From the NCBI RefSeq assembly GCF_055900595.2, contig NZ_CM148325.1: 64,000 nucleotides of DNA, one strand, 5' to 3'. The translations under genes and the position numbers were made by a program. Below the pieces are notes generated by a model. That model was given only the letters and a program-made list of their open reading frames with translations, searched no databases and was not told the DNA's origin. Positions within the stretch are counted from its first letter, which is position 1. Every line of letters begins with the position of its first letter. Below are positions 20,521 through 27,641 of the stretch, piece by piece.

Positions 20521-21816
20521 TTACCTGTTCTCCCACAATCTCAGCATCGCTTTGTGCTCGTCTGTCAGCACAATCTGCGGGCGTCTGACGCGAATATAGT
20601 TAATCGCTTCATCAACGGTTTTACAGTGTCCGTAACATAACAGCCATGCGGCCACCACCAGCGCACTGCGCGATAATCCCAACGCGCAATGGACCAGAAT
20701 GCTGCCTTGCTCTTTGCGTAATGTTTCCAGCATCGCCACGGCCTGTCGGAGCTCTCCCTCATCCGGAACCACCAGATCCAACATAGGTACACAAAAATAG
20801 AGTCGATCTTTTGTCGCTCGTCCGCGAGGGAATTCAAAGGTGACGTCCAGAACCGCATTCTGTGCCGGAATATGTCGTGGAAACGTCCCTAAATAAACAC
20901 CCGCAGTAATTTCGCTCACCGGCTCCAGCCGACGACAAAACCAGTGCATCGATATCCACATACCGATGCGCCAGGGCAATGTCAGCCAGTAAACGGCAGG
21001 CGGGAGTTTCCCCTGACTATCTTTCCCTGTTGTTATCGCGCCAAGCCCACCGTACCCACGGCCAATAATGAGTAGCGATAATACTGGCCAACATAACCAG
21101 ACTGACCACCGTAACTGATTCATCATCATTAGCGTCATCAATACTATGCACGAACACGCGCCTACGACATATGGCAGTGCTATTTTGATTCGACGTTGGT
21201 CAGGTGTCTGATAATTCCAGCGACGGTCGACGGGCACCATCCAGTCAATCAACATACCTACTGCCAGCCCTGTGATGACATCAATAAAATGATGCTGCCA
21301 GGTCGTCAGCGTCGAAATGGCGATGAGTAAAAACCATCCGCCACAGACTTTACGCCACCTCACAGCCAGATGCTGACGAAAGTGACGCCAAAGTAGCCAG
21401 CAGAGAATAATATGCAGCGAAGGGGACTGGTTATAAGGCAGATCAAACAGTTCAAGTTGCGAAAATAGCCATCCCGTCACCCCACTCATTTCAGGGCGGA
21501 TAAAACTAAACTTCAGCGGATAGAGCAAAAAACCGCAACAGGCCATTACCGTTGCCAGAATAAGCCGGTGGACCAGTCGGCGCTGTTCGAATGTCGAGCG
21601 ACAAACGAACAGCGAAAATCCATATAAAAGATCCAGACTCCAGTAAGGAACAATAGTCCAGGGAAGAAAAGGGATCGCCGTTTCCCAACCGAATACCTGA
21701 CTGGGGATATCATGATTGTTAAGATCCTGAAACGCGGTGAACTGATTAAGAAATCCATATGTGAAGAAGAAAAACGGGGCCAGCAACAATAACCAGCCAG
21801 CTCCTTGTAGCAATAC
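20521..21816 (-). CDS. ynbD: YnbD, membrane-anchored dual-specificity phosphatase domain protein
   Basis: ORF 20521..21909; C-terminal HCxxGxxRS phosphatase signature ([10 protein letters not shown]); real start probably the internal GTG at 21816 to avoid overlap with ynbC. Confidence 0.8.
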
Positions 21817-21826
21817 GCTCCGGCGT

Positions 21827-25271: not shown

Positions 25272-27578
25272 TCAATACAACTCATCAAGTTTTCTCATCG
25301 CTTGTTCCCGTATTGCGCGCGTCTTACCGTTAAGCGCCAGCTGCCGAACTAAATCCAGTTCAGGGTTAACAAGCTCTAACGCCAGCAAAGGATCACGTTT
25401 CAGCCTCGCCTTCAATACATCAACTGGAAAGCGGGGATTATTCATCGCCACAATCCACCACTCGGGATCAATTTCTGCCGCCAGTGCCGCAGGGGGGGTG
25501 TGGCGGTTGCTAAGTGCGCCGAACTTGAAAAATGTGAGATTGCTTTTCGCCAGTGTACTCCACCATATACGATCCGGTTGTTTTGCCAGTACATCCAGTT
25601 GTGCTAACGCATCGGGGTCGAGTGCATAATAAACACGTAACGCTTCGTTAACCTGCGCACGGGAACTGTTTTCCTGCCTCAGAAAAAACTTCGCCCAAAT
25701 ATCATTGCATGGCGTGTTTTGCTGTAATTCCTTGAGAACAACAGCGGGTAAATTATCCCAACTAATTAATGCACTCTCTAAAAAGTCCCAGTCGTCCGAA
25801 CGTATCAGAGAGGTGGCATTTAATAGCATCTGGTCATCAACTTCACCGTAGCTGATAAGCTCAGACAAAATCATATCAGCGCTGGTTTCATATGCATCTG
25901 AATCTGCTTTGGGATTATTTTTCCGATGCGATAAAGCACGTTGCCAAATTTTTTGTTTCATCGACGTGCTCAGATACTGATTTTTCGCCAGATTACTCCA
26001 CCCCTCAGGATCGTTGAAACGTGTCAATAACCGTTGTAGAGCAGCGTCAGAGTGAATTTCCTGCATATCCCGACAGCAAAAGTAGGCAGGGGATTTTTTC
26101 TCCATCCTTTTAACAAAATTAAACTGTAAGTTATCTGGCAATGCTAAAAATAACACACGTATTAGATCATCGTCATTCTCGAATTTTTGGTATAAATATA
26201 CTGCAACTTTGTCACTCTCTTGTGGCGTCATCCGCAACAATTGACCATGGTGTTTCATCTCTGCCAGCTTTGACGCTAAGCTTGTGACAACATCGTTTGA
26301 TGAATCGTTCGCCAACTGCATTGCCTGATTGTAGGTGAGTTGTCCTCCAGCACCGACCTGACGAATAGAGGGATCATCACTGCGGATATAGCCATCAATA
26401 ATGGATTCGGGCAATAACCACGCATCTTTATAAAGCTCCTGAATGATCATATCCCAATCTCTTTTCGCCAGAGTCATGACGATATCCAGAGGGAGATTTT
26501 CACGTAGCGCAAGATTCAACGGACCGACACCATCAGGTAGATGACTCATTCGCGTCATTATTTCGACAGAGAGCGGTTCACGGTCGAGCAACCCCAGAAC
26601 AACAGGCTGGTAACCCAATTGCTGATCGGTCAACTCCAGAATCTCATTGTCAGGCATATATCTCGCCATACTTTCAATCGTTTGTCCATCATTGCTATTA
26701 ATAAGTTGTTTGCGTAGGTTAGCTGAAATTCCTTTAATCCTTGGGAGAGTTCGCATTATGGCAAGATCAAATGTCGCAATATCTCGTCCTTCAAATGCAG
26801 CAACGTTGCCTTCATCCAGCATTTGCAATTCCTGCACTAACTCAGGAGAAGGCTTAGGGCGAAACAGCGCTTCTTTTTTCATCAGACTACAGATATTCCC
26901 TGCCATGGGAATATTGCTTCGCTTAAAAATTTCTTTCAGAGCATCTTCATCATTTATTAGACCCCAATAATATGCATCAGGATTTATTATCATCAGCGCT
27001 TTTTTGACATTTTCAGTGTCATTTTTGTCACTCGCACGGACCATGAATTCACTATTTGTCGAAGACGCAACAACAGGTGCAATTATGTCATTGATAAATA
27101 TCCCTCGCGCATTAATACTCCCCTTAATCGTAGACGGATTATCGTAATATGAGTCGATAAATACCAGTCCACTTGCATTTATCGAACCGGTAATTAACAG
27201 TGGTGAATCCGTAACTATATTCGTTGCCGTCACGTTACCGAGAATAACCCATGGATTAGAAAGAGATAAAGTGGAAATATTACCTTTGACTGTCAAATTG
27301 CCAAGAACAATCAATTTTTGATTACTCTCTATATTACCGTCTACCACTAAATCGCCACGATGCACTTTCCAGTCCGATGCAGATAAACCGAAGGGGACAA
27401 GGTTCACGCTACTGTTGATAGCTTGTTCAACTTGTTGTTTATCTTCAGCGGTAGCCGCAGAAAAAAATGGTTCAATATCAACTGCATTTGCAACACATCG
27501 AAGGTCCGCCTGTACTGGAAGACTCAGCATAAACAGGGGAAGTAAACCTATCCAGCTGCAAATCCTGGGCTTAAACAT
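25272..27578 (-). CDS. ydbD: YdbD, large secreted/periplasmic protein of unknown function
   Basis: ORF 25272..27584 (770 aa) with N-terminal signal peptide; conserved upstream partner of ynbABCD. Confidence 0.85.
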   Translation of the reverse strand: MFKPRICSWIGLLPLFMLSLPVQADLRCVANAVDIEPFFSAATAEDKQQVEQAINSSVNLVPFGLSASDWKVHRGDLVVDGNIESNQKLIVLGNLTVKGNISTLSLSNPWVILGNVTATNIVTDSPLLITGSINASGLVFIDSYYDNPSTIKGSINARGIFINDIIAPVVASSTNSEFMVRASDKNDTENVKKALMIINPDAYYWGLINDEDALKEIFKRSNIPMAGNICSLMKKEALFRPKPSPELVQELQMLDEGNVAAFEGRDIATFDLAIMRTLPRIKGISANLRKQLINSNDGQTIESMARYMPDNEILELTDQQLGYQPVVLGLLDREPLSVEIMTRMSHLPDGVGPLNLALRENLPLDIVMTLAKRDWDMIIQELYKDAWLLPESIIDGYIRSDDPSIRQVGAGGQLTYNQAMQLANDSSNDVVTSLASKLAEMKHHGQLLRMTPQESDKVAVYLYQKFENDDDLIRVLFLALPDNLQFNFVKRMEKKSPAYFCCRDMQEIHSDAALQRLLTRFNDPEGWSNLAKNQYLSTSMKQKIWQRALSHRKNNPKADSDAYETSADMILSELISYGEVDDQMLLNATSLIRSDDWDFLESALISWDNLPAVVLKELQQNTPCNDIWAKFFLRQENSSRAQVNEALRVYYALDPDALAQLDVLAKQPDRIWWSTLAKSNLTFFKFGALSNRHTPPAALAAEIDPEWWIVAMNNPRFPVDVLKARLKRDPLLALELVNPELDLVRQLALNGKTRAIREQAMRKLDELY

Positions 27579-27641
27579 ATGCACTCCATGCCATTAAAAA
27601 AGAAACAAAAGGGAAATGCATCTTTCCCTTTTGTATATTCG

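Follow-up and report, generated by a model that had tools for sequence, protein, structure and literature searches.

Escherichia coli ynbABCD is the reduced version of a conserved six-gene cluster of Beta- and Gammaproteobacteria

The ynb genes of Escherichia coli encode a set of lipid-type enzymes, and the locus raises the question of which of its genes belong together and what they might make. The original prediction described a secreted protein (YdbD) and four enzymes as five tightly packed genes of one operon, which looked like a complete pathway for a CDP-activated lipid head group and was judged under-described rather than new. In the current study this locus was analysed within a 64,000-nucleotide stretch of DNA (the window), the source of which is an E. 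coli chromosome where ynbABCD is already catalogued, the locus being 100% identical to annotated E. coli chromosomes bearing these gene names. The judgement of novelty was apt, as the genes are catalogued while no paper assigning YnbA, YnbC or YnbD was found in the literature.

Five co-directional open reading frames do indeed occupy the minus strand, with outer limits at exactly 20521 and 27584 (Table 1). Tight packing was confirmed for ynbA to ynbD only, the junctions of which comprise, by RefSeq starts, a 1-nt overlap of the ynbA stop by the ynbB start, a 15-nt gap and an 11-nt overlap, while ydbD is separated from ynbA by approximately 170 nt. The start codon of ynbD is ambiguous, the candidates being ATG at 21909, GTG at 21837 and a later one used in K-12-type annotations. 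Upstream, the region is bounded by the hairpin at 27605-27634, for which the terminator scan gave 12 pairs followed by TTCTTTTTT. At the downstream end, the inverted repeat at 20483-20510 sits between the stop codons of ynbD and azoR, two convergent genes separated by 53 nt; it lacks a subsequent T-run and was not called by the terminator scan, and it is probably a shared transcription stop of the two genes and the downstream boundary.

Table 1. Features of the ynb locus and its borders in the window
Feature	Position	Strand	Description
10-bp inverted repeat (ATGTGGACTG...CAGTCCACAT)	20483-20510	not assigned	read directly from the sequence
ynbD	20521-21837	(-)	membrane domain and C-terminal Cys phosphatase
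ynbC	21827-23584	(-)	alpha/beta hydrolase and SAM methyltransferase fusion
ynbB	23600-24496	(-)	298 aa, CDP-diacylglycerol synthase paralogue
ynbA	24496-25101	(-)	201 aa, divergent CDP-alcohol phosphatidyltransferase
ydbD-ynbA intergenic region	25102-25271	(-)	170 nt
ydbD	25272-27578, or to 27584 by alternative limit	(-)	768 aa (25272-27578)
Strong hairpin, then T-run	27605-27634	(-)	just after pdxI, ~27 nt before the ydbD start codon

The gap between ydbD and ynbA contains the BglJ-RcsB-activated ynbA promoter, which was mapped experimentally in K-12, together with its BglJ-RcsB site, by 5'-RACE and mutagenesis on a fragment reaching from ynbA to the upstream gene. It has been reported that ynbA, ynbC and ynbD are induced along with the BglJ regulon, that ynb expression is very low and dependent on BglJ, which is itself normally silent, and that YnbB is present at approximately 6 copies per cell. 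With short junctions, a promoter of their own and conserved co-occurrence, the genes at 20521-25101 (-) constitute the E. coli ynbABCD operon, which is BglJ-RcsB-dependent and normally almost silent. No canonical terminator was called by the terminator scan in the ydbD-ynbA gap, where a possible stem-loop at ~25202-25239 has a fold z-score of -1.6, which is not significant.

The inclusion of ydbD in this operon did not withstand the co-occurrence analysis that had been proposed as a check, since none of 80 ynb-related loci from other genera was found to have a ydbD counterpart within 10 kb of ynbC. YdbD homologues form only 35 clusters, all at least 80% identical and confined to E. coli and E. 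albertii, and at least about 450-630 E. coli genomes retain ynbABCD without ydbD; a natural deletion boundary lies at 25200/25201, and the deletion scar of a B2 strain retains the first ~30 nt of ydbD. Moreover, a published list of sigma-E-induced genes contains ydbD alone, without any ynb gene. The gene, with a GC content of 0.39-0.47, is therefore an unrelated, Escherichia-only neighbour outside the ynb system. Its description as a secreted protein is consistent with the N-terminus, which, as read from the sequence, resembles a Sec signal peptide (MFKPRICSWIGLLPLFMLSLPVQA followed by DL, encoded at ~27507-27578). The remainder comprises a short stretch of beta-helix with weak similarity to bactofilin, long helical repeats and, at the C-terminus, DUF2773 (1.7e-44). 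The RefSeq name Bactofilin was rejected, as PF04519 reaches 19.5 bits, below its cutoff of 27.9 (E=1.2e-3, ~residues 78-163); with such an N-terminus the protein would be periplasmic, unlike the cytoplasmic polymer-forming bactofilins.

The domain assignments of the four ynb products were borne out by Pfam matches. YnbA matches PF01066 (CDP-OH_P_transf) at 36.9 bits against a cutoff of 22, over profile positions 3-148 of 152. Its closest relatives in sequence and structure are the PIP and AIP synthases (Mycobacterium PgsA1, archaeal AIPS), the best NCBIfam matches being archaetidylinositol-P synthase NF040950 (73.8 bits, cutoff 180) and PIP synthase NF045883 (50.1, cutoff 170), and the nearest solved structure M. 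tuberculosis PIP synthase (6h53, E=3.6e-8). Neither of these identities nor that of PgsA (TIGR00560, 28.1 against 109.1; NF008090, 19.3 against 304) could be accepted, as the equivalog cutoffs were not reached. The family signature D1xxD2GxxAR...GxxxD3xxxD4 contains four metal-binding or catalytic aspartates (PMC6506517), whereas YnbA reads N69-A-L-D72-G-M-M-A-R-x8-G-A-I-L-N90-E-T-G-D94 (encoded at ~24820-24897), a variant in which D1 and D3 are Asn. This substitution is present in all 79 YnbA homologues, with DG, AR, G2 and D4 kept, and this predicted two-Asn metal site, common to every homologue, is a new finding of this study. In the M. tuberculosis PIP synthase (MtPIPS), Mg-1 is held by D1 and D3, and D3 bridges to Mg-2. 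Since the two Asn residues remove two of the Mg-1-holding carboxylates, YnbA may catalyse a different reaction or bind a ligand without transforming it. R94 of MtPIPS, always K or R in PIP/AIP synthases, corresponds to V95 in YnbA and to a hydrophobic residue (Val, Ile or Leu) family-wide, while YnbA R151 aligns with the phosphate-binding R155.

YnbB matches PF01148 (CTP_transf_1) at 230 bits, and scores 106.7 against the CdsA equivalog NF008635 (cutoff 385), only the C-terminal half being matched. In YnbC, residues ~30-270 form a monoacylglycerol-lipase-like alpha/beta hydrolase (Hydrolase_4, 1.2e-66) with a Ser115/Asp230/His260 triad, in which D230 and H260 show no variation among 10 aligned sequences and at least 90% conservation among 36, S115 being nearly invariant. 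This domain aligns over ~260 residues with the monoacylglycerol lipases M. tuberculosis Rv0183 (E=3e-15) and human MGL (2e-10), with which it shares the triad; it differs from them in its nucleophile elbow, A-Q-S-V-G rather than G-x-S-x-G, and in its fusion to Methyltransf_20. The latter domain (residues ~275-585) is a class I SAM methyltransferase with a Rossmann-type fold, a glycine-rich motif I and an acidic residue after strand 2. It resembles small-molecule and natural-product methyltransferases, and its fold gives no clue to the substrate. Both the SAM motif and the hydrolase triad are conserved, and the fusion is nearly invariant across the family.

YnbD combines ~8 TM helices, carrying a putative His/His/Asp site of the PAP2 superfamily (motifs PSLH and QHHxxD, encoded at ~21280-21423), with a C-terminal dual-specificity Cys phosphatase, in which the previously noted HCxxGxxRS motif was verified (HCALGLSRS, encoded at ~20665-20691). 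The C-domain scores 91 bits to DSPc and has a CX5R(S/T) P-loop, a general-acid Asp and the corresponding fold, and PTPMT1, a mitochondrial phosphatidylglycerophosphate phosphatase of the same fold, is among its top structure matches, although protein phosphatases match slightly better than lipid phosphatases. PAP2 membership of the membrane domain was judged by profile score, motifs C2 (S-x-H) and C3 (H-x3-D) and fold; the PAP2_3 match is weak and below the Pfam cutoff. Structurally this domain is closest to SMSr and Aur1, which with sphingomyelin synthase represent the lipid phosphate transferase branch of the superfamily, but the identity is 11-13%, and ceramide, the usual acceptor of these enzymes, is unexpected in these bacteria. 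The catalytic motifs of YnbD are invariant in the family. The positive-inside rule and family knowledge predict a periplasm-facing His/His/Asp site and a cytoplasmic phosphatase domain. The joining of a sphingomyelin/IPC-synthase-like membrane domain to a Cys-phosphatase domain is described here for the first time.

The 80 loci, which represent ~35 genera, revealed the composition of the full cluster: ynbA, ynbB, a lysophospholipid-type acyltransferase, ynbC, ynbD and a small ~135-aa 2-TM protein. YnbA is directly upstream of YnbC in 79-80 of them and YnbD directly downstream in about 75, YnbB and the PF01553 acyltransferase (closest to Aas-type and AGPAT domains) lie side by side in 66, and the small protein is present in 58-72. 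Besides these six, no gene family is common to more than 13 of the 80 loci; the cluster contains no inositol-phosphate synthase or other head-group-precursor gene and never a glycosyltransferase. It is common in Pseudomonas and Burkholderiales, while Morganellaceae and Xenorhabdus have kept only ynbA-ynbC-ynbD, which is the conserved core. Distant YnbC homologues (31-41% identity) also lie among lipid genes (CDS, PAP2_3, patatin, PEMT, ACP/KS). In Citrobacter the complete set of six occupies the corresponding azoR-hrpA site, and the window contains neither an acyltransferase nor an open reading frame for the small protein. E. coli, lacking two of the six genes, thus has a reduced version of this conserved Beta- and Gammaproteobacterial cluster, a relationship newly recognised here, and the notion of a complete pathway had to be abandoned.

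We infer a lipid product for the ynb cluster and tentatively favour, with slightly less than even confidence, a self-contained CDP-diacylglycerol side branch that builds and remodels a minor, non-bulk lipid and that is truncated and relaxed in E. coli. YnbB would furnish a local pool of CDP-diacylglycerol, an activity shown in the literature for the E. coli protein, and in complete clusters the acyltransferase would supply or re-acylate the lipid. YnbA would transfer the phosphatidyl moiety to an acceptor bearing a phosphate or another negative charge, and the cytoplasmic phosphatase of YnbD would take off the extra phosphate, comparable to PTPMT1 or PgpA acting on phosphatidylglycerophosphate. 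YnbC may methylate the product with SAM and remove an acyl chain through its lipase domain, in either order, while the YnbD membrane domain may pass the phospho-head group to another acceptor or hydrolyse it. In E. coli, YnbB could serve as a weak back-up source of CDP-diacylglycerol, including for MPIase.

Such a series resembles the E. coli PG pathway (PlsC, CdsA, PgsA, then PgpA/B/C), where an acyltransferase, a CDP-diacylglycerol synthase and a CDP-alcohol phosphatidyltransferase acting on a phosphorylated acceptor are followed by a phosphatase, PgpB being a PAP2 enzyme. It differs in that YnbA is far below the PgsA model with Asn at two signature Asp positions, that the phosphatase is a PAP2-like/DSP fusion, that the lipase-methyltransferase fusion and the 2-TM protein have no equivalent among the PG enzymes, and that YnbB cannot replace CdsA for bulk lipids. 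The proposal also shares a two-step pattern, a phosphorylated acceptor followed by dephosphorylation, with PIP/AIP synthases and PIP phosphatase, from which it departs in the YnbA residues described above and in the absence of a linked inositol-phosphate synthase.

Relaxed selection on the E. coli genes, as distinct from their product, is evident. Their dN/dS is 0.16-0.26 against 0.03-0.07 for neighbouring genes (3-9-fold), and deviations from the family consensus number one in YnbA, four in YnbC, one in YnbD and 12 in YnbB, the most divergent protein, which departs at 12 of 79 positions that are at least 95% conserved, more than any of 66 homologues. The operon is found at 80% coverage or more in 4283 of 5426 E. 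coli genomes, with deletions or partial copies in ~21%; ~15% of complete genomes have no ynbABCD match, some through clean deletions. Together with the two ancestral genes lost in situ, the low GC of ynbA and ynbB, the similarly eroded Phytobacter loci and second Citrobacter copy, and the very low expression under a normally silent activator, these data could be taken to mean that the four genes are a remnant in decay under H-NS-type silencing, possibly with side activities such as weak CDP-diacylglycerol synthesis by YnbB but with no natural pathway product in E. coli. We consider this unlikely, as most genomes have all four frames uninterrupted, dN/dS is well below 1, YnbA, YnbC and YnbD have the catalytic residues typical of their families, regulated induction and Tn-seq fitness signals for ynbB have been reported, and E. 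coli retains the whole of the core trio, which other lineages keep by itself.

A dedicated MPIase branch was also weighed, in which YnbB makes CDP-diacylglycerol, YnbA or YnbB uses it with GlcNAc-1-phosphate to form GlcNAc-PP-diacylglycerol (compound I), and YnbC and YnbD act later or in regulation. Among the genes of the operon, the sole function published is the synthesis of this CDP-diacylglycerol-dependent compound by CdsA/YnbB, and the statement that no product was established consequently fails for YnbB, a published CDP-diacylglycerol synthase feeding MPIase, while it stands for YnbA, YnbC and YnbD; no report of a lipid product was found in the literature for any cluster member. YnbB, a CdsA paralogue, synthesises CDP-diacylglycerol in vitro and supports MPIase synthesis, its overproduction raises MPIase, and in CdsA-depleted cells it restores MPIase but not bulk phospholipid, in line with its failure to complement a cdsA deletion for bulk lipids. 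It has been described as 'dedicated to MPIase', and both cdsA and ynbB are cold-induced. The later MPIase enzymes are still unidentified in the literature, and, speculatively, the Asn/Asn site of YnbA, being less negative, might be suited to a phosphate nucleophile. We nevertheless regard this branch as rather improbable. Deletion of ynbB at 37 °C had no lipid or MPIase phenotype, the effect was termed 'marginal or auxiliary' by the authors of that work, and the effects of YnbB are mostly seen on overproduction or CdsA depletion. MPIase is reportedly essential, yet many E. coli genomes are without the operon; compound I synthesis is attributed to CdsA/YnbB themselves and not to YnbA; and the YnbB of E. 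coli is the most atypical of its family. This branch would also leave unexplained the roles of YnbA, YnbC and YnbD, the core without ynbB in Morganellaceae, and a distribution beyond Enterobacterales in which a glycosyltransferase never accompanies the cluster.

We judge it very unlikely that the cluster serves lipid breakdown or signalling, with the YnbC lipase freeing a fatty acid from a (lyso)phospholipid, the methyltransferase yielding a methyl ester or small methylated molecule, and YnbA, YnbB and YnbD preparing or recycling the substrate. Fatty-acid O-methyltransferases have precedents in Ralstonia PhcB and mycobacterial FAMT, and the lipase-like hydrolase, the likeness of the methyltransferase to small-molecule enzymes, their near-invariant fusion and the fatty-acid-synthesis-type genes that adjoin some distant homologues would agree with such a role, but fatty-acid release would not call for a CDP-alcohol transferase and a PAP2/DSP phosphatase to be so tightly and almost universally linked. 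Finally, the unit originally predicted, in which secreted YdbD and four enzymes make and trim a CDP-activated lipid head group, merits almost no credence, for although the five genes are co-directional and adjacent, without a called terminator between ydbD and ynbA, and Tn-seq fitness signals are published for both YdbD and YnbB despite very low expression, ydbD is absent from the loci of other genera, has been lost from B2-type strains that retain ynbABCD, and is set apart by the promoter-bearing gap and its lone sigma-E listing.

Beyond the CDP-diacylglycerol side branch favoured here, a more specific and improbable proposal is that the ynbA-ynbC-ynbD core produces an undescribed Beta- and Gammaproteobacterial lipid, made by a class of CDP-diacylglycerol transferase with a two-Asn dinuclear site and passed across the membrane to a periplasm-facing, sphingomyelin-synthase-like transferase. 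If this were true, the product could be a methylated phospholipid head group or a pyrophosphate-linked lipid such as GlcNAc-PP-diacylglycerol, and in the latter case YnbA would be the missing committed enzyme of MPIase-type glycolipids.

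The interval 20521-27584 is 100% identical to annotated E. coli genomes in which its genes are named ydbD, ynbA, ynbB, ynbC and ynbD, and the five co-directional genes described in the original prediction proved to be real, all of them lying on the minus strand. The domain assignments were also borne out, namely a CDP-alcohol phosphatidyltransferase for YnbA, the CTP_transf_1 family for YnbB, Hydrolase_4 combined with Methyltransf_20 for YnbC and, for YnbD, a dual-specificity phosphatase (DSPc) domain with the HCxxGxxRS motif in addition to a weak PAP2_3 match. The description of the genes as tightly packed holds for ynbABCD, where ynbA and ynbB overlap by 1 nt, ynbB and ynbC are separated by 15 nt and ynbC and ynbD overlap by 11 nt, and fails for ydbD, which lies approximately 170 nt from ynbA. 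The locus is flanked on one side by azoR (convergent) and hrpA, and on the other by pdxI, an intact ydbA-type autotransporter gene and ydbH-ynbE-ydbL. Employed as a 7-kb query, it aligned with most E. coli genomes at only ~96-97% identity, and no Rfam match was obtained in window 19500-28800. Five of the E. coli matches were located on plasmids.

Coordinates of the genes and sequence features discussed (L, fetched genomic locus; L091, B2-type E. coli comparison strain; L011-L090, the 80 loci with YnbC homologues)
Feature	Location	Remarks
ydbD	window 25272-27578, alternative GTG start 27584	
ynbA	window 24496-25101	
ynbB	window 23600-24496	
ynbC	window 21827-23584	
ynbD	window 20521-21837	
YnbA signature N-x2-D-G-x2-A-R-x8-G-x3-N-x3-D	window 24820-24897	
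ydbD deletion scar	L091 10680-10787 vs window 25201-27548	alignment with the B2-type strain
Small protein gene	L002 11026-11433; L004 11020-11430; L006 11031-11435	same position in most of L011-L090

The proposal that ydbD and ynbABCD form one operon could not be sustained, as a mapped ynbA promoter, the lack of co-occurrence and natural deletions of ydbD all place this gene outside the unit. [quoted passage not shown] Consensus scans of the ydbD-ynbA gap gave no convincing sigma-70 promoter or terminator and the intergenic fold was not significant (z=-1.6), and the evidence for the ynbA promoter is therefore taken from the literature only. The co-occurrence analysis that the original prediction had suggested, run across the 80 loci carrying YnbC homologues, recovered YdbD in none of them (0/80). 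Genome counts differ as well: at a coverage of at least 80%, ynbABCD was present in 4283 and ydbD in 3833 of 5426 complete E. coli genomes.

B2-type strains possess pdxI-ynbABCD without a ydbD gene, and alignment revealed the scar of its deletion, in which the initial ~30 nt of ydbD are kept and run into a stop codon, followed by ~106 nt of unrelated sequence before homology resumes at window 25200 with the final 99 nt upstream of ynbA. Together with this deletion, the restriction of YdbD homologues to E. coli and E. albertii (35 clusters, all at least 80% identical) and the low GC content of the gene (0.39-0.47) argue for its separate status. The description of YdbD as secreted is reasonable, because its N-terminus, MFKPRICSWIGLLPLFMLSLPVQA/DL, reads by eye as a typical Sec signal peptide. 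The RefSeq label 'bactofilin' was rejected, the match, at 19.5 bits, falling short of the 27.9-bit cutoff, and a literature search on DUF2773 returned nothing relevant. A strong terminator-like hairpin follows pdxI at 27605-27634, its end separated from the ydbD start codon by only ~27 nt; this leaves no space for a ydbD promoter between the two, and ydbD would therefore have to be transcribed from inside pdxI or by read-through.

Homologues of YnbC number in the thousands; those scoring below 1e-30 form approximately 400 clusters at the 50% identity level, and full-length fusions of lipase and methyltransferase reach down to ~31% identity. The 80 loci, retrieved in a genome profile search with a 10-sequence YnbC alignment and searched with the E. 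coli proteins, derive from Enterobacterales, Neisseriales, Burkholderiales, Rhodocyclales, many Pseudomonas and one Bradyrhizobium; distant metagenomic homologues lay mostly on contigs too short for their neighbourhoods to help. Gene order was taken from tblastn and ORF clustering served for presence counts only, since in GC-rich loci spurious overlapping ORFs and merging by single linkage had contaminated the clusters. YnbA is encoded immediately upstream of YnbC in 79-80 of the 80 loci and YnbD immediately downstream in ~75. YnbB, present in 66, always adjoins a PF01553 acyltransferase, nearest to Aas-type lysophospholipid acyltransferase and AGPAT domains, which E. coli lacks. A small membrane protein of ~135-150 aa with two helices, matching no Pfam or NCBIfam family, follows ynbD in 58-72 of the 80 loci; its gene overlaps or follows the ynbD end in most genera and is absent from E. 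coli, and the motifs CWRLWLD..YF and FIWRRERL are found in the enterobacterial forms of the protein. The order is ynbA-ynbB-acyltransferase-ynbC-ynbD-small in Citrobacter, Hafnia and Snodgrassella, and ynbA-ynbC-ynbD-small-acyltransferase-ynbB in Pseudomonas and Burkholderiales. Apart from these six families, each gene family was common to 13 loci at most out of the 80. Only ynbA-ynbC-ynbD are retained in Proteus, Providencia, Morganella and Xenorhabdus, which identifies this trio as the core. Citrobacter, Pseudomonas, Variovorax and Cupriavidus are among those with an intact cluster. In a Vibrio (L004 6000-11430; L005, Vibrio fluvialis) the cluster adjoins a resolvase gene, ynbB is truncated to 132 aa and YnbC shares ~77-78% identity with its E. 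coli counterpart, which has the look of a cluster acquired recently from Enterobacterales by horizontal transfer. Two ynb copies are present in Citrobacter sp. Cu233 (L013, L020), of which the second is degenerate.

The six-gene cluster of four Citrobacter species occupies the site of the E. coli operon, with azoR and hrpA next in line. Neither the acyltransferase nor the small gene is present in the window, where only 15 nt lie between ynbB and ynbC and 53 nt between the ynbD and azoR stops; given the shared site, E. coli lost both genes in situ, and the pathway can thus not be called complete, as had been predicted. Between the window strain and the B2 strain, dN/dS was 0.22 for ynbA, 0.26 for ynbB, 0.16 for ynbC and 0.26 for ynbD, compared with 0.03 for azoR and hrpA and 0.07 for pdxI, so that selection on ynbA-D is judged from these ratios to be still purifying, if clearly relaxed. 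E. coli YnbB deviates at 12 of 79 positions that are at least 95% conserved in its family, exceeding all 66 homologues, mostly in the N-terminal half (e.g. the WYG motif altered to CFE); the corresponding deviations number one in YnbA, four in YnbC and one in YnbD. The operon's only experimentally studied protein, YnbB, is thus also the most atypical of 67 members. Approximately 15% of E. coli genomes lack any ynbABCD match and some genomes carry deletions reaching from pdxI into ynbD, and Price et al. found YnbB and YdbD each at <1 ppm of protein.

Several features of the surrounding DNA were also recorded. A 123-aa minus-strand ORF after ynbD (20165-20536) was considered as the missing small gene and discarded, being antisense to azoR and unrelated in sequence. 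The dS of hrpA (window 15759-19661) against the B2 strain is 0.29, ~1.6-3.7 times that of the other genes compared (0.08-0.18), pointing to a segment that has recombined or is unusually divergent. The ydcF-hrpA interval (~14590-15656, plus strand) holds, according to the RefSeq annotation of L001, an SMI1/KNR4-family (immunity-protein-like) gene, a small hypothetical gene and a pseudogene fragment, all three of which the B2 strain lacks at this position. At the ydbA position (28710-34202, minus strand) lies an intact autotransporter ORF of 1830 aa; the B2 allele there is far longer (~8.3 kb) and annotated as an adhesin, and ydbA of K-12 is disrupted by insertion sequences.

The best profiles for YnbA were archaetidylinositol-phosphate and phosphatidylinositol-phosphate (PIP) synthases, with PgsA and PssA lower and all below cutoffs, and the nearest solved structure is the PIP synthase of M. 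tuberculosis (MtPIPS). In that enzyme Mg-1 is held by the signature aspartates D1, D2 and D3, the last of which also bridges to Mg-2, and D4 has been proposed to act as the base. On alignment, the signature D1xxD2GxxAR...GxxxD3xxxD4 reads NxxDGxxAR...GxxxNxxxD in YnbA and in all 79 homologues, and the residue following D4, always K/R in PIP synthases, is hydrophobic in every YnbA-family protein, whereas R151 aligns with the phosphate-binding R155 of MtPIPS. We know of no characterised CDP-alcohol transferase with Asn at D1/D3 and a hydrophobic residue after D4. YnbA is therefore a conserved but atypical family member with a remodelled metal centre, and its reaction cannot be assumed.

YnbD was modelled at pLDDT 93.5, and its elements PSLH, QHHxxD, a CX5RS loop and the general-acid Asp are invariant; its His/His/Asp site would face the periplasm and its Cys phosphatase the cytoplasm, a topology predicted from the positive-inside rule on the modelled helices and from the known properties of PAP2 and sphingomyelin synthase (SMS) proteins. 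The YnbC hydrolase half resembles monoacylglycerol lipases, with the triad Ser115/Asp230/His260 intact and an AQSVG elbow. In its methyltransferase half (pLDDT 95.5) the SAM motifs are conserved, and the top structural neighbours, a Bordetella protein that is uncharacterised and various small-molecule methyltransferases, give no indication of substrate.

Operon structure, cluster composition and erosion in E. coli are computational observations, and we hold the organisational claims with great confidence. A self-contained side branch of CDP-diacylglycerol (CDP-DAG) metabolism is the best overall reading, at slightly under even chances, while its chemistry is put forward more tentatively still, steps two to five being modelled on family resemblance and the first alone having been demonstrated experimentally. 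YnbB would supply CDP-DAG locally, joined by the acyltransferase in complete clusters; YnbA may then move the phosphatidyl group onto an anionic, probably phosphorylated, acceptor, to be dephosphorylated by the DSP domain of YnbD; YnbC would methylate the product and strip an acyl chain, with re-acylation where the acyltransferase is present; and the periplasm-facing SMS-like domain of YnbD may finally transfer or hydrolyse the head group.

An unlikely alternative is that the genes form a dedicated branch for the glycolipid MPIase. According to the work of Nishiyama's group, overproduced YnbB raises MPIase; YnbB makes CDP-DAG in vitro and, upon CdsA depletion, rescues MPIase and not bulk phospholipid; cdsA and ynbB are both cold-induced, and deletion of ynbB alone is described as leaving lipids and MPIase unchanged. 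The original statement that no product is established consequently requires amendment for YnbB and stands for YnbA, YnbC and YnbD, as literature searches found nothing assigning these, PF12147 or DUF2773, and nothing relevant on ynbABCD as an operon or on the enzyme combination in Pseudomonas. In Tn-seq, ynbB insertions were depleted in an ECA-PG-only strain, yet ynbB was dispensable for ECA-PG synthesis. Tn-seq also flags ydbD and ynbB as fitness-relevant despite ~6 protein copies/cell (PMC5053530, PMC8609368); both lie in AT-rich, probably H-NS-bound DNA, and an insertion artefact is therefore possible.

Equally improbable is that the locus is a relic making nothing in E. coli, a notion that the gene losses would favour, that the remaining purifying selection would not, and that can in part be reconciled with the side branch in species other than E. 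coli. That the lipase-methyltransferase serves catabolism or signalling, consistent with the lipase-like half of YnbC, is less probable again beside its near-constant pairing with YnbA and YnbD. A ynbC transposon mutant accumulates polyphosphate, a phenotype absent in the Keio background and dismissed as a clue to function, being indirect and probably due to stress. The five-gene model, for all that its genes are co-directional, is almost certainly incorrect given the independence of ydbD.

The locus matters since the account of phospholipid synthesis in E. coli is considered all but complete, and yet the ynb operon encodes second copies of central phospholipid enzymes together with three activities that have no place in the textbook pathway. 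Two annotations of convenience are corrected, one making ydbD an operon member and the other a 'bactofilin'; the gene should be left out of the ynb locus, which, in agreement with its portrayal as under-described rather than new, is long known and partly studied. The findings bear on MPIase, as ynbB, the sole assigned gene, is an accessory and fast-evolving cluster member, and the family-wide Asn/Asn metal site of YnbA provides a concrete, mutable handle on metal use by CDP-alcohol transferases. What is of value is a widely conserved cluster of lipid genes that is still uncharacterised, encodes unusual variants of its enzymes and is poorly represented by E. coli; the E. coli version being worn down, the product should be sought via a complete cluster and not by deletion of the silent E. 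coli genes.
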